A stretch of 64,000 bases of DNA from assembly GCA_041649155.1 (NCBI GenBank), contig JBAZNP010000001.1, positions 173,808-237,807 on the forward strand. Reading direction: 5' to 3'. The position numbers and the translations under genes were made by a program. Each line of letters starts with the position of its first letter. Position 1 is the first letter of the stretch. The notes under the pieces were generated by a model, which worked only from the letters and a program-made list of their open reading frames with translations, was not told the DNA's origin and ran no database searches. This stretch comes from Patescibacteria group bacterium. GTDB taxonomy: Bacteria; Patescibacteriota; UBA1384; XYA2-FULL-43-10; 1-14-0-10-43-13. Positions 1,105 to 18,159 of the stretch are shown here, one piece after another.

Positions 1105-3294
1105 TTAAACCAGTACTGCCTGCTCCACTCCGACTATTGGCGCAACCATTTCTTCCGGAGTTGAACACTCAGCCGCTTTATCAACCTTAACCATTTTTCC
1201 ATTTATCATCTTATAAGTTTTTCTGTCCTCAAATTCAGCGCGCTTGCCTTGGTTCCATTGCTGAACCGGTCGAATATAACCAACAATTCGAGAATATACT
1301 TCGGTAGCAGATCCACATTTCTTGCATGTATCAACCCTACCAGCCATGTAACCATGATTTGGACAAACCGAGAAAGTAGGAGTAATTGTGAAGTAAGGAA
1401 GGTGATATTTTTCGCAAATGGTTCTTATGAGAGATTTAATAGATTCGACATCATTAATCTCTTCGCCAATGAATAAGTGAACTACTGTGCCCCCTGTGTA
1501 TTTGACTTGAAGATTGTCCTGCAAATCAAGTACTTCAAAGACATCATCAGTATAATCAACAGGAAGATGTGAGGAATTGGTGTAGTAAGGAGCAGTCTTT
1601 GTTTCCTGATAATTATCTTCGTTAGCGACCATAATGTCGGGATAAAGTTCTTTGTCCAATTTTGCCAATCGGAAAGATGTTCCTTCAGCCGGAGTCGCTT
1701 CAAGGTTGTAATTATTACCTGTTTCGGTTTGATATCCAGCCATTCTTTCGCGCATGAAGTCCAAAACCTCTCTGGCAAACTGTTGGCCTTCAGCAGTGGT
1801 AATATCGCGACCCAAAAGATTTAATACCGCTTCATTCATGCCAAGAAGGCCGATAGTTGAAAAGTGATTGGACCAATACTGCTTGTCGCGCTTTTTAATA
1901 TTTCTCAAATAAAATTTGGTGTAAGGATAAAGTCCGGCATCGGTCATATTTTCAAGAACTTTTCTCTTCATTTCCAAACTCTCTTTTGCTAAATCCATCA
2001 AATAACCAAGATTGTAGAAAAATTCTCTTCTGTCGCGTGATCTGTAACCAAGACGTGGTAAATTAATGGTCACAACCCCAATAGAACCAGTCAATGGATT
2101 AGCGCCAAAGAGTCCGCCGCCGCGCTTGCGAAGTTCACGGTTGTCCAATCTTAGTCGACAACACATACTTCTTGCATCCTCTGGGTTCATATCGGAATTA
2201 ACAAAGTTTGAAAAATATGGAATTCCGTACTTTGCCGTCATTCTCCAGACTGGTTCCAAATCTTTATTGTCCCAGTCAAAATCCTTGGTAATATTGTAGG
2301 TTGGAATCGGGAAAGTAAAAACACGGCCTTTGGCGTCGCCTTCGGCAATTACTTCAGCAAAGACTTCGTTAAACAAATTCATTTCTTTTTGAAAATCTTT
2401 GTAAGTTTCTTTTTGTGGTTTTCCGCCAATGACAACAGGCTGGTCAGCCAATGTCGAAGGGCAAAGCAAATCTAAAGTTACATTGGTAAACGGAGTCTGA
2501 AAACCAACACGAGTTGGAACGTTCATGCCAAACATGAAAGTCTGAAGTTCCTGCTTTACTTCATCACGAGTTAGTTTGTCATAACGAATAAACGGAGCCA
2601 TCAAGGTGTCAAAACTGGAAATTGCCTGTGCGCCGGCAGATTCTCCCTGAAGGGTATAGAAAAAATTAACAAGCTGGCCAAGAGCTGTGCCAAAATGCTT
2701 GGCTGGCTTGCATTCAATTTTACCGGCCGCTCCGGTGAAACCTTCCTGAAGTAAATCCTGCAAATCCCAACCAACACAATAAGTGGAAAGAATATTCAAA
2801 TCATGAATATGCATGTCGCCCTCAGAGTTTGCCCTGCTGATTTCTTCACTATAAATTTTGTGAAGCCAATAGCTCTTAGAAACTTCAGAAGCAATGTAAT
2901 TATTTAGTCCTTGAAGCGAATAGGCCATGTTGGAATTTTCTTTGACCTGCCAGTCAATATTTTCAAGGTATTGATCCATCAAGTCGACTTTTTGGGCTTC
3001 AGCTAGATCACGAAGTTCAGCATGTTTCTGTCGATAAATGATGTAACTTTTTGCAGTGCTTCTGTATTTTGAAGCAAGCAAAATTTCCTCAACAACATCC
3101 TGTATTTCTTCAACAGTAGGGATTCTTCTTCTGATTTTTTCCGGCGCCTTTTCCAAAACTTTTTCGGCAAGCTTGCGAGCAACTTTATCATCAAATTCGT
3201 CGGTTGCTTTACCGGCCTTACCAATAGCAGTAACTAATTTTTCAAAATCAAAATTGACAAGCTTTCCGTCTCGTTTTCTGATTTTTGTGTACAT
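1105..3294 (-). CDS. nrdD: anaerobic ribonucleoside-triphosphate reductase, class III
   Basis: 729 aa. N-terminal ATP-cone (MYTKIRKRDGKLVNFDFEKLVTAIGKAG). C-terminal Zn-ribbon CPNHGY...CKKCG and glycyl-radical region RIVGYIRPV. AGGAGG ribosome-binding site 6 nt upstream of the ATG. Confidence 0.9.
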   Translation of the reverse strand: MYTKIRKRDGKLVNFDFEKLVTAIGKAGKATDEFDDKVARKLAEKVLEKAPEKIRRRIPTVEEIQDVVEEILLASKYRSTAKSYIIYRQKHAELRDLAEAQKVDLMDQYLENIDWQVKENSNMAYSLQGLNNYIASEVSKSYWLHKIYSEEISRANSEGDMHIHDLNILSTYCVGWDLQDLLQEGFTGAAGKIECKPAKHFGTALGQLVNFFYTLQGESAGAQAISSFDTLMAPFIRYDKLTRDEVKQELQTFMFGMNVPTRVGFQTPFTNVTLDLLCPSTLADQPVVIGGKPQKETYKDFQKEMNLFNEVFAEVIAEGDAKGRVFTFPIPTYNITKDFDWDNKDLEPVWRMTAKYGIPYFSNFVNSDMNPEDARSMCCRLRLDNRELRKRGGGLFGANPLTGSIGVVTINLPRLGYRSRDRREFFYNLGYLMDLAKESLEMKRKVLENMTDAGLYPYTKFYLRNIKKRDKQYWSNHFSTIGLLGMNEAVLNLLGRDITTAEGQQFAREVLDFMRERMAGYQTETGNNYNLEATPAEGTSFRLAKLDKELYPDIMVANEDNYQETKTAPYYTNSSHLPVDYTDDVFEVLDLQDNLQVKYTGGTVVHLFIGEEINDVESIKSLIRTICEKYHLPYFTITPTFSVCPNHGYMAGRVDTCKKCGSATEVYSRIVGYIRPVQQWNQGKRAEFEDRKTYKMINGKMVKVDKAAECSTPEEMVAPIVGVEQAVLV

Positions 3295-3308
3295 AACACC
3301 CTCCTGAA

Positions 3309-3430
3309 TTAAGTAGTAAGTTGTAAGTAATAAGTTGTAAGTAATAAGTTGTAAGTAATAAGTTGTAAGTAATAAGTTGTAAGTAATAAGTTGTAAGTAA
3401 TAAGTTGTAAGTAATAAGTTGTAAGTAATT
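3309..3430. repeat. 14-bp tandem repeat array (GTAAGTAATAAGTT, about 8.5 copies) in the nrdD 5' leader
   Basis: Seven perfect units at 3323..3420, plus a degenerate first unit and a partial last unit. Lies between the NrdR boxes and the nrdD ribosome-binding site. Confidence 0.9.
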
Positions 3431-3545
3431 ATTTAAATAGCTGGTTTATAGCTTATTTACTTAATCCTTACTTGCTTAATTCTTGTTCGGTAGTTTCAAT
3501 TATAGCTTTCGCCTTATGTTCGGTCAAATTTACAAAATGGATTAA

Positions 3546-3561
3546 ACACTATATGTAGTAC
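3546..3561. promoter_or_regulatory. NrdR box 1 upstream of nrdDG
   Basis: ACACTATATGTAGTAC matches the 16-bp NrdR-box palindrome consensus acaCwAtATaTwGtgt. Two copies with 33-bp centre spacing, as is typical for tandem NrdR boxes. Confidence 0.55.
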
Positions 3562-3578
3562 AGATCACACACCTAAAA

Positions 3579-3594
3579 ACACTATATGTAGTAC
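3579..3594. promoter_or_regulatory. NrdR box 2 upstream of nrdDG
   Basis: Second identical 16-mer, ACACTATATGTAGTAC. Confidence 0.55.
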
Positions 3595-3798
3595 TATTGT
3601 TGATAATCTTATCAACAAGTAAAATTAACTAATTCCAGACTAAATATTTTAATTATTTAAAATAATATTATTAAAGGCTTTGTAAAAAAATATTAAAACC
3701 CTCAAGGTATAAACTAGTTATTAGCAGGTTAGTAATTAGTTTTTAGAAAAATTAAAAACTCGCCGAAGACGAGTCAATAAGTTAATAAGGCAATATTT

Positions 3799-5343
3799 TT
3801 ACTGTTTACTGACAGTAATTGTAGCTTCGCTTACGTTTCCTGCTGCATCATAGGCTTTGGCCTTAAAAATGTAATCCCCCGAATGTCCAACGAACCATGC
3901 AATCTTTATCCCGATGTAACCGCTATTCTGAGTCGCCAGAAGTTGAGTTCCTGCATAAAATTCCATCTTAACCACGTTCCTATTATCAGTTGCGCGTGCT
4001 TCAAGAATCAATTCTCCACCCGTCCAAGGATGAGGATTATCTGTTGGGTTAAAAATTGTAACAACTGGATTCTCGGTATCAATTTCGTTATTACTAAAAG
4101 TCACAGAGACAGAACTTTCAGCACTTTGGCTGCTATCATAAGCGACTGCTCTCAATGCATAATTGCCATCACTATACGCCCCCGTATTAACTGTTGTTTC
4201 ATATGGGGCAGCTGCATCCTCAGCAATCAGATCATTATTAACATAAAAACCAACCTTTACAACCCCGACATTATCCGAAGCCGAAGCTTTTAGGGTAACT
4301 GATCCCGTAAGTGAAGATCCAATCGATGGCTGCGTAATAGATACAACAGGCGGAGTGGTATCTGAAATTGGCTCAGCGACACTTCCTCCTGAAGCAGATG
4401 TAGCAAGATTGCTTAACCAAGTTTTAGTTGTAACCGACGGATAACCATGGACTTCGCTCATCGCATGATATCCGTAGCCGGAGTAAAAATAAGAATAATC
4501 TTCAGCGATAATTTCAACTTCGCAATTGCCCCATCCGAGAGAATAATCCGTAGCAGTGGCTGCTTTGGAAAGATGACGAGTAGAGTAATAACTGTCAGGA
4601 AATCTGACGCCGGCCGGCAAGTTCAAATCAACCCATTTGTGGTAAAGAGTATAATGATGACCATATTCGTGGGAAAGAACCAGCTTCATGTAATCATAAA
4701 ATTGCGGAGAATCCTTATGATAGTAAACGTTTAAAACTATGTAGCCAAACGCCGAAACAATATCTCCGCTGGAATTAGTTGAATAAGAAGCTTGATATTG
4801 ACCCTCCCAACCAGTATCACCGGCATTCCTGATAGTGATCTGGTACATGTAGCTTACTTCACTACTCCACTTAAGCTGAGAATTTAAATAATCTTTTAAT
4901 GTTTTTTCAAGTGCTGGATAGCTGCCCGTTTCATCGGAATATCTAATACTATAGGGCGAAGCTCCGGTAGGACCAAGACTTGCGATGCTGCTTAACTCCG
5001 ATGAATTTCCACCACCATCAGAAACTAATGTGGTTTTACTCCCGTCAGAATTGGTTGTTGTGTTTCCTGTAATTTTGCTTGAAGCTGAATGCTTAGGAGG
5101 CTCTTGAGCTATAGTGCTGGTTGTTACAGGAGCACTAATCGTAGCTCCTAATTCCGTTGGCATTTGGGTTGTGTCTGTGACTACCGTTTCCTCAATTTTT
5201 GCTGGTTGTCGTCCAAAAGCAGCTTTTACAGAATTCCAAAGACTGCGATCAAAGTAAAAAGTCGCCGAAACAGCCGTTACAATAAATACAAAGGCTATTA
5301 AAAATATGGCAATTTTTTTATCGAATCGATCGGCCCTCAACAT
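3799..5343 (-). CDS. membrane-anchored or secreted HExxH zinc metalloprotease-like protein with C-terminal Ig-like repeats
   Basis: N-terminal TM helix, Ser/Thr-rich linker, HEYGHHYTLYH (HExxH), and two similar C-terminal repeats (VTLKASASDNVGVVKVGFYVNN and TDNRNVVKMEFYAG). Confidence 0.55.
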   Translation of the reverse strand: MLRADRFDKKIAIFLIAFVFIVTAVSATFYFDRSLWNSVKAAFGRQPAKIEETVVTDTTQMPTELGATISAPVTTSTIAQEPPKHSASSKITGNTTTNSDGSKTTLVSDGGGNSSELSSIASLGPTGASPYSIRYSDETGSYPALEKTLKDYLNSQLKWSSEVSYMYQITIRNAGDTGWEGQYQASYSTNSSGDIVSAFGYIVLNVYYHKDSPQFYDYMKLVLSHEYGHHYTLYHKWVDLNLPAGVRFPDSYYSTRHLSKAATATDYSLGWGNCEVEIIAEDYSYFYSGYGYHAMSEVHGYPSVTTKTWLSNLATSASGGSVAEPISDTTPPVVSITQPSIGSSLTGSVTLKASASDNVGVVKVGFYVNNDLIAEDAAAPYETTVNTGAYSDGNYALRAVAYDSSQSAESSVSVTFSNNEIDTENPVVTIFNPTDNPHPWTGGELILEARATDNRNVVKMEFYAGTQLLATQNSGYIGIKIAWFVGHSGDYIFKAKAYDAAGNVSEATITVSKQ

Positions 5344-8137: not shown

Positions 8138-8213
8138 TCCCCGATAGCTCAATTGGCAGAGCGCTTCGCTGTTAACGAAGATGTTACTGGTTCGAGTCCA
8201 GTTCGGGGAGCCA
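8138..8213 (+). tRNA. tRNA-Asn (anticodon GTT)
   Basis: Cloverleaf by eye: acceptor TCCCCGA/TCGGGGA, anticodon arm CTTCG-CTGTTAA-CGAAG, T-arm ACTGG-TTCGAGT-CCAGT, encoded CCA. An extended -10 element (TGATAGAAT) lies about 40 bp upstream. Confidence 0.85.
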
Positions 8214-9674
8214 ATTCACATTTTTACTACAAAGAGCCATTGCATCAAATGGCTTTTTGTAATTCCAGAGTAGTTTTTTACCTCTCAACCTAAGGTTTGA
8301 AAGTACGAAATTGATAAGCTGTCTCTTTTCATCTAGTTCACAACTATCAAATAGCTCTACGGCTCTCTTTGCTAGTTCTATAATATAAAAACTCGTTATT
8401 AGGAACTCTTTATCAGCAGTAGTATGATTGCTCATTTTGCCATTCAAGAACTCTTGTCTGTCCTTCAATTCTAGGAATATTTTGTCATATTGGCCGTCAG
8501 TAATACGACCCTTCAAGTTATCCAAATAAGCTTTTTGGACCATACCATCAATTTCGTCAAATTCCTTTCTGAATTGGCGTATTGATGACTTGTATACATC
8601 TCGTTCAGAATAAAAGGTTTTTTCCATTTCAGTTTTTAGTTCTTCCACAACATCATCAGGCATTACTAAGCCAACAAACGCTTTTCTGACTTGAGACAAT
8701 AGTTCTTCCTCTGTAACCCTTTCAGCACCGCATTTGCCCTTATATTGGTTGCAGATGCAATAATTGATACCTTTAGTTGGGTCTTTACCAACCATACAAT
8801 CACAATGGTCGCATTTAACTAGTCCTCTAAATGCAAACGGCTTGCTTGCATACTTAATTACAGTATGAGATTTTCCCTCTCTTACAGCTTTGCATTTTTC
8901 AAATAGCCATTTTTCAATAAGTGGTTCATACCTATGAGGATGAAGTTTGCCGTTATAAAGCATAACCCCATAATAAAAAGGGTTCTTTAATATTTGGTCC
9001 AGTTGGCTTTTTATTACTGGCTTTCCTGCTTTAGTGCTATTTCTTAAACCCTCGTCTTTCAAAATTTGAACTATCTGCTTGAGGCCATAGTTTCCAGTTG
9101 AGTAGAGTTCAAATGCTTTTTTAACCAAATAACCCCTATTTTTATCAATAACTACTTCTTTCCTTTCATTGATATCAGCATTAAGGTAGCCGATAGGTGC
9201 TTTCTCTGGCCATTCGCCATTTCTTATTTTTTGCTCAATTGACCTTTTTACATCATCAGATAATCTGTTCAAATATTGCTTAGCAAGAAAGACCTTTGCT
9301 TCCCACATAAACATTTGGTTACCAGTAGCTTCTGCATTTATATAGAAACCCTCTTGAACAAAGTGTATTTCCAAGCCATCATTTCTTCTTAATTCGTCAA
9401 TATCAACAGCGTCTCGGAAATTTCTCGTTGCTCTGTCTACATTTTGGCAAAGCAAAACCCTAACATCCTTATTTTTCTTCAGATAGTCGAGTACTTCTTC
9501 AAATTTTCTTCTTATTTTGTGTCCAGCACTTTCAGAGAAAGAAAATTCTTTATCAATCTTAAAATTATTTTTGAGGGCATATTCTTTTAGTCTTCTTATC
9601 TGTGCAGGGAGCGAATGCCCCATTTCTTCCTGCTCTTTTGTCGAAACTCTTGCCAGAATTATAGCTTTTCGCAT
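8184..9674 (-). CDS. large serine recombinase (integrase)
   Basis: N-terminal resolvase domain (ILARVSTKEQ with the catalytic Ser, and VDRATRNFRD), a recombinase domain, and a Cys-rich Zn ribbon (CDHCDC...CICNQYKGKCG). The last 10 codons are encoded by the complement of the tRNA-Asn 3' half. Confidence 0.85.
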   Translation of the reverse strand: MRKAIILARVSTKEQEEMGHSLPAQIRRLKEYALKNNFKIDKEFSFSESAGHKIRRKFEEVLDYLKKNKDVRVLLCQNVDRATRNFRDAVDIDELRRNDGLEIHFVQEGFYINAEATGNQMFMWEAKVFLAKQYLNRLSDDVKRSIEQKIRNGEWPEKAPIGYLNADINERKEVVIDKNRGYLVKKAFELYSTGNYGLKQIVQILKDEGLRNSTKAGKPVIKSQLDQILKNPFYYGVMLYNGKLHPHRYEPLIEKWLFEKCKAVREGKSHTVIKYASKPFAFRGLVKCDHCDCMVGKDPTKGINYCICNQYKGKCGAERVTEEELLSQVRKAFVGLVMPDDVVEELKTEMEKTFYSERDVYKSSIRQFRKEFDEIDGMVQKAYLDNLKGRITDGQYDKIFLELKDRQEFLNGKMSNHTTADKEFLITSFYIIELAKRAVELFDSCELDEKRQLINFVLSNLRLRGKKLLWNYKKPFDAMALCSKNVNWLPELDSNQ

Positions 9675-12016: not shown

Positions 12017-12898
12017 TTAGAACTTCATTTCAGGCACTTTTTTAGTTTTAATTCTATCATCCATAGTATCTATATTTTCTAGTAGTTGCTTATCAGGAAT
12101 TTTTATTGCTATCTCTTTTGATAAATTAAGGTATTTCCTAGCTTCTCGGTATCGGTACATTGTCCTCAGCTGATTGGCATAATTATAAAGAGCTAGTGCT
12201 TTTTCTGGCAAATCGTTATTTTCTTCTGAGATACTAATCGCTTTGAGAAAAAACTTATCAGCTTCTTTGTGTAGTAATTTCAATCCTTTTTTGTCTTTTC
12301 TATTATACAAGAGATGCTCTAATCTTTTCTCAATCAACCAATGTTGTAACCCATTCTTTCCAATTTTATTGTATCGTAATTCCATTGAGCGATAGCCGTA
12401 TGCTTGGCCAATCATTGAATAAACAGTTGACATAAGAGCAGAATCTTTTGTCTTATCTGCTATGCCCTCTGCTTCCTTGAGACTTTGTGTTGCATTTTCT
12501 TCTAGGTCACTTAGCTCTTGCTCAAGCGTTTCATATTCAACTTGTTCTCTTTCAAGCGAAAACTCAAACCATTCAGGCGAGAGTTTTATTCTTTTCATTC
12601 TGTCTATACTTCTTAGTTTCTTGTGAAGTGAGAGCAATCCTTTATAACACAAAGCGATAGCTTTTATATCCTTGTCTACCAATCTGTTGGACAAGCGTAT
12701 TGTTTCGTTGGTTATGACCAAAAGCTGTTCTGTATCTCTCACAGGGTCCAAAGAACGATTAAGCTCCAGACCACAATTTAATCGCATAACCACATTAGAA
12801 GAAGAATTAAAAATATCAAGAAACATCTTTGCTGCTTCCTCTTTATGCCCAACTACGATCATTGCTTCGGCTTGGCTAAATTTATCTTCTTCGGACAT
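12017..12898 (-). CDS. hypothetical protein (helical, possibly TPR-like)
   Basis: 293 aa. Overlaps the upstream gene by 17 nt, which suggests an operon. Confidence 0.45.
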   Translation of the reverse strand: MSEEDKFSQAEAMIVVGHKEEAAKMFLDIFNSSSNVVMRLNCGLELNRSLDPVRDTEQLLVITNETIRLSNRLVDKDIKAIALCYKGLLSLHKKLRSIDRMKRIKLSPEWFEFSLEREQVEYETLEQELSDLEENATQSLKEAEGIADKTKDSALMSTVYSMIGQAYGYRSMELRYNKIGKNGLQHWLIEKRLEHLLYNRKDKKGLKLLHKEADKFFLKAISISEENNDLPEKALALYNYANQLRTMYRYREARKYLNLSKEIAIKIPDKQLLENIDTMDDRIKTKKVPEMKF

Positions 12899-13829
12899 AT
12901 TTGTATCTTATACTTAATAAAAATATTCTAAGTTTATTGGGGATTACCTTTTTTAGAAAAAATTTGATATCCAGAGGGTATTTGCTAAACCAAATTCTTT
13001 TTAAGGCAGAGGAGCTGGACACAAAGTAGTTACGGCACGACCCTCTAATCATTCTGTTATCTTCCTGAACACGTTTATCTGAAATTTCAATGTATCCTCT
13101 TAAATCGTTCCAGCAGAAACAAGCCACAATATCAGTAGATAGCGGTATTGTCAGCTGGATATTCTTTTGACCCAAGCCATACCCATAAAATCTTTGCCAC
13201 TGCAAATCAGGATTAAACAAATGGCAAGGTTCATCAGAAGTTATGAACTTAGCTTTACCTTTTTTTGCTGAGCATAAGAAAGATAAGTTCATATGAACGA
13301 GCATTTCTGTTATATCTGGCAACAGATTTGACAAAGTTAACTTATGAGCGTCTGTCTTATAGCTTCTGAGTTCATTGGATTTCTTCGGAGGTATATTATG
13401 AGCAGCTTCCATCCGCTCTGTCATTTCAATAATCTGGTCTAAGTTCTGTTCAATGTTTTCCTTTTGACCTTTAGTTCTTAGCATCATTGCGGCAACAAAA
13501 GCGCACAATATAATATGTTCTTCATTAGACAAGGGTTTTCTTTTTGCAATCTTATCCTGAAAAATGAGGGCATACTTATCTTCCAGCTCAGAAAGAGAAA
13601 TTTCAATTGAGTAATCATAAACGTTATTGGCACAAGAAGCTTTAGGGGATTTTAACGAGTAAATATGTTTGCTAACAAAAGCTTTCTCAACTTTCTTGAG
13701 TTCTTTTGTCTTGCCGTCTTTGCTAAATATCCATATCCGCGGGTCGTTGCCCGACTGACTTGGGTCTGAAAATTGCTTAAGATAGCATTGAGAAATATAA
13801 TGTTGTCGCTTAGGATTACCCATAAGCAA
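12882..13829 (-). CDS. DUF4238-like protein
   Basis: The N-terminal RQHYISQCYLKQF motif resembles the DUF4238 signature (HYvPqfYLrxF). Confidence 0.4.
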   Translation of the reverse strand: MLMGNPKRQHYISQCYLKQFSDPSQSGNDPRIWIFSKDGKTKELKKVEKAFVSKHIYSLKSPKASCANNVYDYSIEISLSELEDKYALIFQDKIAKRKPLSNEEHIILCAFVAAMMLRTKGQKENIEQNLDQIIEMTERMEAAHNIPPKKSNELRSYKTDAHKLTLSNLLPDITEMLVHMNLSFLCSAKKGKAKFITSDEPCHLFNPDLQWQRFYGYGLGQKNIQLTIPLSTDIVACFCWNDLRGYIEISDKRVQEDNRMIRGSCRNYFVSSSSALKRIWFSKYPLDIKFFLKKVIPNKLRIFLLSIRYKYVRRR

Positions 13830-14575: not shown

Positions 14576-15163
14576 TTACCCTTTCTTGTTAATATTTTTT
14601 ATGCCCTTAAAATAAAGTTCAGCATCCTTTGAGCTTGGACCAGATATAATAAAATGTTCATCTTTAGCCATTTCGGGATATTTTATAGTTAATGAGTTTT
14701 TTAGCATTCCATTATTAAATAAAATATCAATCGCTTTCTCATATAAAACACTTATCATTGAATTTTGCCCGACAAATATAAATCGTTTGTTGGTCATAAT
14801 CATTTGACCTGCATCTATCCTCTCAACCGCTTCTACTGATTTTTCAGAGGTTTTACTTCCCGCTGTTACAGCTCCGCCTAAAGCACCGAGTGGACCGAGC
14901 AATAATCCTCCGACAACCGCTCTGCCAGCAACACCTTTTTTCTTTTCGGTGCTGATTGTATGACTTACAATTGCCATTCTTTGAGATGAGAAAGTAGCAT
15001 ATGCATTCTCATCTGGTTCAAGGTTAAAATCAGTTTTTATCGGTTGGATATGACCTTCCAATATCTCGTTTTTTCTATGCTCTTCCTCAGCTTTTTTCCT
15101 ACTTTGCTCATCTTGATAATTTTCATAACCTTTTTTGATTTTAGAAATCAGGTCAAAACCCAT
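14576..15163 (-). CDS. glycine-zipper TM plus bacterial-PH-like protein, paralog B1 of 21432..22010
   Basis: KKGVAGRAVVGGLLLGPLGALGGAVTAGSKT is identical in both paralogs. The C-terminus (TNKRFIFVG...) is bPH_2-like. Start set at MGFDLISKIKKGY by homology. Confidence 0.5.
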   Translation of the reverse strand: MGFDLISKIKKGYENYQDEQSRKKAEEEHRKNEILEGHIQPIKTDFNLEPDENAYATFSSQRMAIVSHTISTEKKKGVAGRAVVGGLLLGPLGALGGAVTAGSKTSEKSVEAVERIDAGQMIMTNKRFIFVGQNSMISVLYEKAIDILFNNGMLKNSLTIKYPEMAKDEHFIISGPSSKDAELYFKGIKNINKKG

Positions 15164-15250
15164 AACGAACCTCTTTCTATGATTACTATTTCTGATAGTG
15201 TGACTTATAATCCGTAGACCTATAGTCATAATCTACCACAAAATGGTAGT

Positions 15251-15478
15251 ATGATAAAAGAGCAAGAGCTAAAATCTATCACAAAGAAATTCGGCCAACG
15301 AATTAGAGATGAGCGTACGAAGCAAGGGATATCCCAAGAGGAGCTTGGTTTTAGGACTGGTTTGGATAGAACTTATATTTCAGGTATTGAAAGAGGCGAA
15401 AGAAATCCGTCACTTAAAAACATCGCCAAAATAGCCATTGCTCTAAAAATAAACTTGAACGAGCTCTTTACCCTCTAA
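15251..15478 (+). CDS. XRE-family HTH transcriptional regulator
   Basis: QEELGFRTGLDRTYISGIERGERNPSLKNIAKIAIAL is a classic Cro/C1-type HTH. Confidence 0.7.
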   Translation: MIKEQELKSITKKFGQRIRDERTKQGISQEELGFRTGLDRTYISGIERGERNPSLKNIAKIAIALKINLNELFTL

Positions 15479-15527
15479 CAGTCTTCAAAATTTGGCTTTA
15501 CTAAGCTTTTTTTGGTATACCAAGATT

Positions 15528-16094
15528 ATGATGAATTTCTCAAACAATGTTTTTGGACCGCAACCGCCTAGGTTCTTACCGATAAAACCGCCAAAGCGGA
15601 AAGTTTTTATTAGCTTTCATCACGCCAATGACCAACAAGCTTACAATATATTGAAGAGATTATTTTCTGATAAATACGAGGTGTTCGAGGACCATTCGTT
15701 AAACAACCAGCTAATCAATAGCCAAATAGCCGAAAATATTGACCGAGCAATACGAGAGCGTTTTATAAAAGGGTCTTCAATTACAATTGTTCTGTGCGGT
15801 GAAGAGACCCACAAAAGAAAATATGTTGATTGGGAGATAAACTCAACATTACTACACGAACACGCATTGCTCGGAATTGTTCTACCGACAGCTACAAAGA
15901 ATGTTCAAAACCAGCACATTGTTCCAGACAGATTGGCTGTGAACGCAAATTCTGGCTATGCCCACTGGGAGCTGTGGGATAATTGTGCTGGAAGTGCAGA
16001 CAATATAAATATGGCAATTGAAGTGGCATTGTTAAATAGTAAAAACAAAAAGCTACTAGACAATTCTCTTCCTAAGATGCATAGGAATTTATGA
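15528..16094 (+). CDS. TIR-like domain protein (DUF1863 / ThsB-like)
   Basis: KVFISFHHANDQQ and KYVDWEINS motifs typical of MTH538/TIR-like domains. Overlaps the downstream gene by ATGA. Confidence 0.55.
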   Translation: MMNFSNNVFGPQPPRFLPIKPPKRKVFISFHHANDQQAYNILKRLFSDKYEVFEDHSLNNQLINSQIAENIDRAIRERFIKGSSITIVLCGEETHKRKYVDWEINSTLLHEHALLGIVLPTATKNVQNQHIVPDRLAVNANSGYAHWELWDNCAGSADNINMAIEVALLNSKNKKLLDNSLPKMHRNL

Positions 16095-16516
16095 AGAACG
16101 ATGAAAAAATAAAGCATCTAGAGTTCATTCAAGGCGTCATCAACCGTTTGGCCAATAACTCCTTCTTGATTAAGGGATGGCTAATAACAATTACTTTAGC
16201 TGGACTGAGCTTTTATCTGACTCAAAAGAAGACCACCATTCTACCAATTCTATTGGCAACAGCAATTCTTTTTTGGTTTTTGGATTCTTATTATCTTAGA
16301 CAAGAGCGATTGTTTAGAAGATTGTATGCCGATGTGGTAAAAGGAAAAATAGAGCCAATCTTTGATATGGATGTTTCAAGATATCAAGACAAAATCCAAA
16401 ACTCATTTGCCACAATGTTCTCTTATCCCAATTGCTTTTTATATATTGCGATTATTGCACTAATATTGGTTCAAATTGTGCTGTCTCTCAAAATTGAGAT
16501 AAGCATAAAATTCTAA
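16091..16516 (+). CDS. small multi-TM protein, SLATT-like putative membrane effector
   Basis: 141 aa. An N-terminal helix followed by 2 to 3 hydrophobic TM segments. Translationally coupled to the TIR-like gene. Confidence 0.35.
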   Translation: MKNDEKIKHLEFIQGVINRLANNSFLIKGWLITITLAGLSFYLTQKKTTILPILLATAILFWFLDSYYLRQERLFRRLYADVVKGKIEPIFDMDVSRYQDKIQNSFATMFSYPNCFLYIAIIALILVQIVLSLKIEISIKF

Positions 16517-18159
16517 CGAGTTAAAGTTAATTCGGGTATTCTCTTGAGAAAAGCATACTCGGACAGAACTTTAATTTCGTTATTTAATTGCAGAATTGAA
16601 TCATAGTATTCAGTTCTGAACTTATACACCAAGGGGAGCCATAGTTGCGATTTTATAAAATGAGCTTGTGATTCACCTTGTTGAGTCTCAACTTGTGGTA
16701 AAGAAAGCAGTGTTTCAAACAATTCAGTTGGCACTGCTTTTTTGATTTTCCTATTTTCGACTATTATCTCGTTCCAAAATAGGTCAATATACGCTCTTTT
16801 TCTTTTTGGACTTGCCGTCAAATATGCCTTGAATACATCCTCTGCTAAAAACATTAGCTCTTCAAACACCCGTGTGTTATCAGCTCTATTTACTTGAAGC
16901 TTGCCTAGTTTCTTTTCTACAACTTTCAGCTCGTTCTTTATTCTTGTGGTTTGTCGGATATAAGTTTCACTACCAATTACTCTGTTGCCAAGGTCTTCTT
17001 CATAGTTAGATCTCTGCTTTTCTAGCTTGTTTTGCTCGGACAACAAGTTGTTTCTAGCAATATCAATATGATTATGATTTTGCGATAGATATTTTTTTGC
17101 CTGAAAGACTATTTTTCCAATCAGCCGTTTGGGTAATTGAAGATTTTTGAATAACTCTTCTACCATTTTCTCCAAGTCCTTAGTGCTTATGTTCTGTAAT
17201 TTATTTGAGTGAACAGAGCTACTTGCGGGACAATGATAATACGCTTTTTCTTTAGCGCCGTGATGCTCAGCGGTGTAATGCCGACCACATTTCCCACATT
17301 TTATATAACCGCTTAAAAGAAATTGATGTTTTCTTTTTCTGTCGACATATTTGTTGTGTTGCTCTAAAATTTCATTGCAAGTTTCAAAAGTTGTTTGATT
17401 TATGATTGGCTCGTGCTTTCCTGGATAAATTTCACCTTTGAATTCAATTTTTCCAGTATAAAAAACTTCTTTAAGAATGTTGATCATCGCTTGCTTCCCA
17501 ATTTTGTTGCCAGTTCGTGATCTTAAGCCTTCCTCAAACATAATGTCGCACAGATTTTCAACAGAATATGATCCGGTAGCAAATAGCTTAAATGCTTTTT
17601 CAAGTAATGGTGCGACTACCTTATCTAGTGCTATAATATTTCTCTCAAAACCACTCGTTACTGTTTCATTAACCACATTCTTATAACCTATTCGTGCAGG
17701 ACCAGCCCACCAACCTGCTTGAATCTTCTCCATCATTGAAATACTAGTTTTTCTGCCTGTTATCTTTGGGGTTAGTGCATTAACTGCAGCCAAAATTGAA
17801 TCCATAAATCTACCCTCGGGTGAGTCATCTAACATAGGCTGATTTATTGATCTGATCTTCGTTCCAGATTTTAGTAGCATTGATTTAACCGCGAAATGTA
17901 GAGACTCATCTCTAGCCAATCGGTCAGTATCAATAACGTAAACGTAATCAACAGAGTTATTCTTACAATAAGCAATCATTTCTTGCAGTCCTGGGCGGTT
18001 CGGATTGCTTCCAGATAAACCTTCATCTTGAAAAACTTCAAGCAAGTTGCCTCCGTCTTCGGCAATAGCTATCTTTCCTTTGCTCATTTGCGTTGGGATA
18101 GAGCAATCCTTTTTGGCCTGTTCGTCAGTGCTTACACGTCCATAAATTACACAATTCAT
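16513..18159 (-). CDS. large serine recombinase (second copy)
   Basis: IYGRVSTDEQ with the catalytic Ser, VIDTDRLARDE, a recombinase domain, and a Zn-ribbon Cys cluster (CGKCGRHY...HCPA). Confidence 0.85.
   Translation of the reverse strand: MNCVIYGRVSTDEQAKKDCSIPTQMSKGKIAIAEDGGNLLEVFQDEGLSGSNPNRPGLQEMIAYCKNNSVDYVYVIDTDRLARDESLHFAVKSMLLKSGTKIRSINQPMLDDSPEGRFMDSILAAVNALTPKITGRKTSISMMEKIQAGWWAGPARIGYKNVVNETVTSGFERNIIALDKVVAPLLEKAFKLFATGSYSVENLCDIMFEEGLRSRTGNKIGKQAMINILKEVFYTGKIEFKGEIYPGKHEPIINQTTFETCNEILEQHNKYVDRKRKHQFLLSGYIKCGKCGRHYTAEHHGAKEKAYYHCPASSSVHSNKLQNISTKDLEKMVEELFKNLQLPKRLIGKIVFQAKKYLSQNHNHIDIARNNLLSEQNKLEKQRSNYEEDLGNRVIGSETYIRQTTRIKNELKVVEKKLGKLQVNRADNTRVFEELMFLAEDVFKAYLTASPKRKRAYIDLFWNEIIVENRKIKKAVPTELFETLLSLPQVETQQGESQAHFIKSQLWLPLVYKFRTEYYDSILQLNNEIKVLSEYAFLKRIPELTLTR

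Follow-up and report, generated by a model that had tools for sequence, protein, structure and literature searches.

A 64,000-nucleotide stretch of a Patescibacteria group bacterium genome (contig JBAZNP010000001.1 of assembly GCA_041649155.1, forward-strand positions 173,808 to 237,807; hereafter the window) encodes a ThsB-type TIR protein and, overlapping its gene by four nucleotides, a 141-residue membrane protein. These two genes likely form a Thoeris-type immune signalling system with a ThsF-like effector, carried on an integrated element of this member of the candidate phyla radiation (CPR). The evidence for this assignment comes from the domain identities of the two proteins, the three-helix transmembrane (TM) architecture of the effector, the coupling of the genes, the conservation of the pair, the exchange of its TIR partners and the match of both proteins to catalogued and typed families.

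An initial annotation of the window, made from its letters alone, had described an XRE regulator, a TIR-like protein and a small SLATT-like membrane protein as a candidate uncharacterised defence or abortive-infection module. The three open reading frames (ORFs) lie on the plus strand exactly where that annotation placed them (Table 1). The word uncharacterised no longer applies. The gene pair is not new: it is catalogued in PADLOC as PDC-M50, and it very probably corresponds to a Thoeris type, type V with the effector ThsF, that was tested against phage in 2025 and whose TIRs match those found beside this membrane family.

Identity of the TIR protein

The initial annotation had assigned the upstream protein to the ThsB-type TIRs, and the profile searches agree. 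The Pfam ThsB_TIR match (Table 1) covers profile positions 1–99 of 100. The protein contains the motif KVFISFHH...KYVDWEI. The catalytic-type glutamate is E103 (codon 15834–15836), within the motif DWEI, and both W102 and E103 are invariant when the window TIR is aligned with other ThsBs. The top PADLOC match is PDC-M50B (1.2e-14), behind which stand several ThsB models, the best at 4.7e-13. EcThsB (8wcf) was matched by phmmer at 0.004, in an alignment that runs through the WxxEI motif. Beyond the TIR core the protein carries a C-terminal extension of ~70 residues; at its other end, a TTG at 15492 is an alternative to the ATG start listed in Table 1.

The AlphaFold2 (AF2) model of the TIR protein was built from a shallow and distant alignment and reached a pLDDT of 52.5. 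When submitted to Foldseek, it returned the ThsB/TIR structures 8wcf, 8fz9, 9b7d and 8v6t with probabilities of 0.96–1.0, which we take as weak support only because the model itself is poor.

Architecture and distribution of the membrane protein family

Where the initial annotation had likened the protein to small SLATT-type proteins with two TM helices, hydrophobic windows and the AF2 model both give three. Hydrophobic segments lie at residues 25–43, 48–66 and 115–133, behind a hydrophilic N-terminus. A signal peptide and a lipobox are absent from the 141-residue protein, and its sole cysteine, residue 115, lies within TM3; the protein is therefore neither secreted nor a lipoprotein, in keeping with the helical hairpin that had been expected in place of such features. 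Indeed, the AF2 model (pLDDT 92.7; helices 2–45, 50–83 and 114–139) has a long helical hairpin plus a third helix. In this model an N-terminal amphipathic helix leads into TM1 and, after a tight turn, TM2 leads into a conserved cytosolic helix, which is followed by a loop and TM3.

The invariant residues of the family are R19, N23, F25, W30, W62, D65, L69, E72, R76 and Y79. As modelled, an antiparallel hairpin that turns near residue 47 would put R19 opposite R76 and N23 opposite E72, so that conserved basic and polar residues would cluster on the cytosolic side. Testable candidates for a ligand site are the invariant residues R19, R76, E72 and Y79.

Of the 134 positions of PDC-M50A, 131 are covered by the match of the membrane protein, which also hits three more A models; the PADLOC check of the island that the initial annotation had proposed therefore recovered both components, PDC-M50A and PDC-M50B. 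The family itself is large and widespread. When the representatives of 1.84 billion clusters at 50% identity were searched with the family profile, 5,838 matched at E ≤ 1e-3 and 4,306 at E ≤ 1e-10, and a scan of one genome per species found the family encoded in at least 537 genomes, from both bacteria and archaea. The exact 141-residue protein is on record as a hypothetical protein of a Patescibacteria metagenome-assembled genome.

Mobile elements are among the carriers. Plasmids with a family member number 136, of which Klebsiella accounts for 42 and Escherichia for 36. These enterobacterial counts are close to those of plasmids with a ThsB of the DAR 81934-like kind with a long N-terminus (43 Klebsiella and 36 Escherichia), and the enterobacterial plasmid copies (e.g. 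L107, on K. pneumoniae pCuAs, 2489–3794) are annotated merely as a hypothetical protein and a TIR protein. In three Vibrio phage elements of the Vinavirales, a family member lies beside a ThsB gene and an integrase gene. One of them, the 14-kb tectivirus-like Vibrio phage 10N.286.55.A5_PE002 (L108), carries integrase-like, ThsB and ThsF-like genes at 1347–2635; phage-like elements therefore carry this defence pair.

Two faint similarities to other membrane families were also noted. Among 43 family members scanned with Pfam, 24 gave sub-threshold matches to DUF3278 (best 3.4e-6), which may indicate distant kinship to that uncharacterised membrane family of Firmicutes. The match of the 141-residue protein to STING_TM (0.016) is probably due to chance.

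Conservation of the pair and exchange of TIR partners

The initial annotation had read the TIR and membrane protein genes as overlapping by ATGA, and the codon positions bear this out: the ATG of the membrane protein gene is at 16091–16093 and the TGA of the TIR gene at 16092–16094. Such an overlap implies translational coupling of the two genes, a property predicted here from their arrangement. The same four-nucleotide overlap recurs in L102 and L098, which are among the nearest relatives, and in the Vibrio phage L108.

The genes also stay together over larger evolutionary distances. We counted a TIR gene as adjacent if it lay on the same strand within 300 bp of the membrane protein gene and applied this criterion to 80 genome loci. 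At least 46 of them have an adjacent TIR gene (37 a downstream one and 17 an upstream one, with 8 loci having both), and the pairing is far beyond chance. Pfam searches of the neighbours of the 39 loci that lacked an adjacent TIR on the first pass revealed further TIR_2 (10), SEFIR (2) and CAP12-TIR (2) domains. The three nearest relatives, L102, L098 and L096, retain both genes, with identities to the window proteins of 78, 68 and 60% for the TIR and 73, 56 and 67% for the membrane protein, respectively. In distant loci the membrane protein is 37–45% identical and the adjoining TIRs come from unrelated clades. It is a hallmark of Thoeris systems that a conserved effector is joined with exchangeable TIR sensors, and this pattern therefore supports a Thoeris-type modularity.

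Fusion proteins point the same way. ThsA-type effectors sense their ligand through SLOG, and in the 378-residue protein P0345 an N-terminal SLOG domain (LD_cluster2, 1.7e-15) is fused to the TM domain of the family at the C-terminus, which supports the TM domain as the executing module. Two other long members also carry the TM domain C-terminally: P0324 (351 residues) has an N-terminal domain of the 8xMP octameric membrane protein family (1.6e-27), and the N-terminal part of P0304 (362 residues) has no Pfam match. In one locus (L001) a family member adjoins restriction-modification and AAA_15/21 ATPase genes.

The window is one of several CPR/Patescibacteria loci in which the family lies beside a TIR. 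Others are L030, L033, L055, L064, L065, L069 and L076, and the carriers span Moraniibacteriota, Komeilibacteria, Roizmanbacteria and Saccharibacteria; the system is therefore recurrent in this group of reduced genomes. A group with small defence repertoires, the Patescibacteria, is thereby added to those in which the system is documented.

The membrane family and ThsF of type V Thoeris

Yirmiya et al. (bioRxiv 10.64898/2025.12.03.692087) described 29 putative Thoeris configurations, of which types V to XI were validated. Type V consists of ThsB and ThsF, the latter 'annotated DUF2270' (Pfam PF10028) and having three TM helices; in AlphaFold 3 models ThsF forms a ring with positively charged pockets between protomers. 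Type V systems were tested against phage in B. subtilis. Their ThsBs make 3′ cyclic ADP-ribose (3′cADPR) on phage infection, and 3′cADPR renders the system toxic, the system of B. thuringiensis DAR 81934 being the one that this molecule triggered (Yirmiya et al.).

The membrane family of the window is very probably this ThsF, as judged from sequence comparison of the TIRs that stand next to it. When TIRs that Yirmiya et al. list under 'DUF2270 - Type V' (Table S1) were compared with TIRs adjoining the family, identities reached 87.6, 87.1, 84, 79 and 76% (L023, L065, L055, L067 and L025, respectively). The validated ThsBs lead to the same neighbours. On a Priestia plasmid (L082), a TIR 67% identical to the validated ThsB of Bacillus sp. 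1NLA3E precedes a family member that is itself 45% identical to the window membrane protein, and on a Terribacillus plasmid (L093) another member is preceded by a TIR that shares 47% identity with the validated ThsB of DAR 81934. Of the plasmid regions returned by tblastn with seeds from type V TIRs, seven were inspected. No neighbour annotated as DUF2270 occurs in any of them, and five carry the membrane family nearby. A homologue search with the TIR domain of 1NLA3E returned type III-like SLOG loci only, and no plasmid matched the type V TIR of V. cholerae.

Several observations weigh against the assignment to a type V-like system. The identification with ThsF comes from partner-TIR identity and architecture and not from a direct profile match: Pfam DUF2270 (PF10028) stays below threshold, with no match to the window protein at E ≤ 0.1 and weak matches in 7 of the 43 members (best 0.002). 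The effector labels of Table S1 are assigned from representatives and are noisy by the authors' own warning (Yirmiya et al., bioRxiv 10.64898/2025.12.03.692087). In the same study three type V systems were tested, of which one failed to protect against phage, and for a second system 3′cADPR had no toxic effect. By the criterion used, 34 of the 80 loci have no adjacent TIR, and ten actinomycete loci pair the membrane family with a HIT gene instead. Finally, the typed TIRs nearest to the window ThsB are those of cluster 2741407742, a type VI cluster, at 35–39% identity.

The last point raises the question of which signal the window pair would use. Tested members of cluster 2741407742 are type VI ThsBs that produce 2′cADPR (Yirmiya et al.), and one alignment to a TIR of this cluster (35% over 148 residues) takes in part of the C-terminal extension. 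Identities of 35–39% are too distant, however, and the product of the window ThsB therefore cannot be read off from the type VI cluster. A recombinant Thoeris, in which a ThsB of the type VI clade, whose tested members make 2′cADPR, has been wired to a ThsF-like 3-TM effector that answers 2′cADPR or another TIR product instead of 3′cADPR, under a dedicated XRE controller and in an ultra-small CPR symbiont, is a tentative idea that we hold to be rather doubtful.

A related possibility is that the membrane family is not ThsF but another type of Thoeris effector. Under that explanation the window would hold a TIR and 3-TM system that works in the same way, possibly with its own signal, with an effector family distinct from ThsF/DUF2270, such as the '3TM' class or PDC-M50. 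It would account for the sub-threshold DUF2270 scores in all members examined, and Table S1, with its noisy labels, does list a separate, unvalidated '3TM' effector class of 100 entries; the TIR of one locus (L005) has a '3TM'-class TIR as its best seed match, and the PADLOC candidates are explicitly untested. Against it, it is this membrane family that adjoins the 'Type V' TIRs at 76–88% identity, homologues of both validated kinds of type V ThsB pair with it in Bacillaceae and on enterobacterial plasmids, and it is found in five of the seven type V-seeded plasmid regions, whereas a DUF2270 neighbour is found in none. We therefore regard a distinct effector family as improbable and keep ThsF as the probable assignment.

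The loci with HIT genes deserve separate mention. In ten actinomycete genomes (Table 1) the ThsF-like gene is convergent with an adjoining gene for a HIT-domain protein; the six that were scanned gave HIT E values of 1e-11 to 1e-21. No directly adjacent TIR was found in any of these ten loci, and a TIR-like ORF lies elsewhere in three. A Dietzia plasmid (L090, 1792–3099) combines a TIR and a HIT gene in a type XI-like arrangement, with the TM gene convergent. These arrangements suggest either a signal common to HIT and ThsF-like effectors or the existence of a HIT and TM gene pair that does without a TIR. The combination of one 3-TM effector family with many unrelated ThsB clades, and with HIT hydrolase genes in actinomycetes, bears on the signal that each variant reads.

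Proposed mechanism

That phage is sensed, what the signal is, that the effector oligomerises and that the membrane is disrupted are inferred from the literature on related systems, and the ligand site from the invariant residues and the AF2 model. By this analogy ThsB would detect phage infection, probably via its C-terminal extension, and would use E103 to turn NAD+ into a second messenger of the cyclic ADP-ribose type. The effector would be the translationally coupled 3-TM protein, which is predicted to assemble in the membrane as a homo-oligomer. The signal may bind a basic pocket on the cytosolic hairpin, where R19, N23, E72, R76 and Y79 would face each other, and its binding would open or disrupt the membrane such that growth stops before the phage cycle is completed.

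The roles of the two proteins could also be reversed, with the TIR as a toxic NADase effector and the membrane protein as its sensor, anchor or regulator, as in CBASS, Pycsar and SPARTA. TIR NADase effectors are frequent in other systems, and Yirmiya et al. (bioRxiv 10.64898/2025.12.03.692087) allow this arrangement for TIR configurations that were not verified. The best matches of the window TIR, however, are ThsB-type models, and a TM family that occurs with many unrelated ThsB clades and in a SLOG fusion fits an interchangeable downstream effector, not a sensor. Moreover, phage-induced 3′cADPR from type V ThsBs and toxicity induced by 3′cADPR have been reported (bioRxiv 10.64898/2025.12.03.692087). 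We consider the reversed roles very unlikely and retain ThsB as the signal synthase and the 3-TM protein as the effector.

The locus and its island

Upstream of the pair, on the same strand, lies the XRE gene (Table 1), 49 bp from thsB and with no terminator-like site between them. Around the operon neither a sigma-70-like promoter on the plus strand nor a terminator was found. The initial annotation had described the XRE gene as divergent from its neighbour, which is the case (gene 14576–15229, minus strand), and had counted it as part of the system, which the comparison with other loci does not support. XRE is missing at the corresponding position in L102, L098 and L096, and the handful of XRE-like ORFs in ~100 loci includes none at that position. 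The place upstream of the pair is taken by an unrelated gene in L102, by a divergent gene for a LexA/S24-methylase fusion in L098 and by a HigBA-like pair plus an unknown gene in L096. The system as conserved across loci thus does not include the XRE protein, which probably acts as a local, lineage-specific regulator of transcription, either for the operon or for the mobile element. No inverted repeat of 10 nt or more was found in the XRE region. A possible operator is a perfect shorter one, CTACCA-N5-TGGTAG (6-5-6, 15233–15249), which lies directly against the start codon of XRE. The XRE ATG is just 21 bp away from the called start of the gene 14576–15229, and this neighbouring gene more likely starts at an internal methionine near 15163.

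Table 1 Features of the locus and of the loci with HIT genes. Positions are those of the window, except in the last row, where they are those of the loci named.
Feature	Position	Strand	Details
XRE/Cro-C1-type HTH regulator gene	15251–15478	+	75 aa; Pfam HTH_3 8.7e-18; PADLOC 'Control_protein' 9.1e-23
thsB (predicted TIR sensor/signal synthase)	15528–16094	+	188 aa from ATG; Pfam ThsB_TIR PF08937 3.1e-22, TIR_2 2.6e-6
thsF-like effector gene (predicted)	16091–16516	+	141 aa, 3 TM helices; PADLOC PDC-M50A 8.1e-39; PHROG 19896 4.7e-30
ATGA overlap of thsB stop and thsF-like start	16091–16094	+	read from sequence
Large serine recombinase gene	16513–18159	-	Pfam Resolvase 4.5e-24, Recombinase 1.7e-11, Zn_ribbon_recom 3.9e-10; PHROG 95 integrase 2.7e-78
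Second large serine recombinase gene	8184–9674	-	Pfam Resolvase 1.5e-20, Recombinase 1.8e-13
tRNA-Asn(gtt)	8138–8213	+	ARAGORN
HIT-paired actinomycete loci L002, L004, L016, L034, L036, L051, L056, L061, L074, L075	HIT ~4390–4910	-	TM gene ~3995–4400

The placement of the module on an integrated element between two recombinase genes, also put forward in the initial annotation, is supported by the genes for two large serine recombinases. The nearer one is convergent with the thsF-like gene, overlaps it by 4 nt and marks one edge of the island. The other runs with its 3′ end 30 bp into tRNA-Asn, an arrangement that points to integration linked to the tRNA, and this region (8138–9674) is likely the other edge of the island and its site of integration. 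No att-like flanking direct repeats of 16 nt or more were found between 7900 and 21500.

The position of the module at the extreme end of the element, abutting a serine recombinase gene, would also suit readings other than phage defence: a cassette that serves the integrative element for addiction or stabilisation, or a remnant that is decaying as the CPR genome is a reduced one. The local XRE gene recalls a toxin–antitoxin layout, and a HigB/HigA-like pair lies just upstream in L096. Both ORFs are intact, however, and keep all invariant residues of the family and the catalytic glutamate. A 799-kb contig encodes precisely this membrane protein, relatives at 56–78% identity keep the pair, and the family is strongly linked to defence genes and to TIRs. 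A role outside defence is hardly credible on these grounds, and we continue to view the pair as an immune signalling system. The same island also holds a DUF4238 gene (12882–13829, minus strand; Pfam 1.1e-30, PADLOC DUF4238-Pers 5.3e-13), which is overlapped by a gene for a TPR-containing protein (12017–12898, minus strand); together they are probably a second defence-type module.

Comparison with known systems

That the locus could be picked out at all indicates that a reading of the letters alone is able to spot a genuine TIR-based immune module. Both of its proteins match the two models of PDC-M50, A at 8.1e-39 and B at 1.2e-14. The PDC-M systems are multi-gene phage defence candidates obtained by guilt-by-embedding and explicitly untested (Payne et al., bioRxiv 10.1101/2024.01.29.577857). 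PDC-M50 is itself a catalogue candidate without a proposed mechanism, and no mention of it by name was found in the literature searched.

With type I, whose ThsA effector is a SIR2-SLOG protein, and type II, whose ThsA is a Macro-TM protein, the window system has a ThsB-type TIR sensor in common, and type II likewise kills via a membrane effector. It differs from both in that no SIR2, SLOG or Macro domain occurs in its effector or neighbouring genes. A SIR2 or SLOG domain was absent from the effector and from the genes scanned between 8184 and 26240; the effector had no Macro match, and its 141 residues leave no room for such a domain. The statement of the initial annotation that the locus is neither type I nor type II thus stands.

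Type VII is a validated combination of ThsB with the SLATT effector ThsH that uses canonical cADPR (Yirmiya et al., bioRxiv 10.64898/2025.12.03.692087). It shares with the window system the overall logic of a TIR and a small membrane-spanning effector predicted to oligomerise and breach the membrane, and its cytosolic N-terminal helix with a TM hairpin behind it bears a superficial likeness to the layout of SLATT proteins. The SLATT-like character that the initial annotation had proposed was, however, not recovered. None of the 43 family members matched a Pfam SLATT model at E ≤ 10, and when the family profile was compared by hhalign with the SLATT/DUF4231 effector from a staphylococcal locus of type VII-like kind, a single-sequence template that could miss very remote homology, the probability was 0.1%. 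The window effector has three TM helices, not two, and the partner TIR sets differ, those of the family matching type V-labelled and not type VII TIRs. That the window pair is a type VII system with a SLATT effector and canonical cADPR is accordingly highly unlikely.

Type VI consists of ThsB and the DUF6650 effector ThsG and signals through 2′cADPR. Its TIR cluster is the one most similar to the window ThsB, including part of the C-terminal extension, whereas the window effector is not a DUF6650 protein.

The closest overall likeness that we draw is to type V. The window differs from it in the order of its genes, ThsB then effector: the type V order of ThsF then ThsB (Table S3) is also the commoner one in the loci examined. 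It further differs in that its ThsB belongs to another TIR clade, nearest to the type VI 2′cADPR producers (35–39% identity), in the attached XRE gene and in its Patescibacteria host. Nevertheless, the window pair resembles type V in that a ThsB TIR and a small three-helix membrane effector make up an operon of two genes, and both validated type V ThsBs have homologues that occur paired with the effector family of the window.

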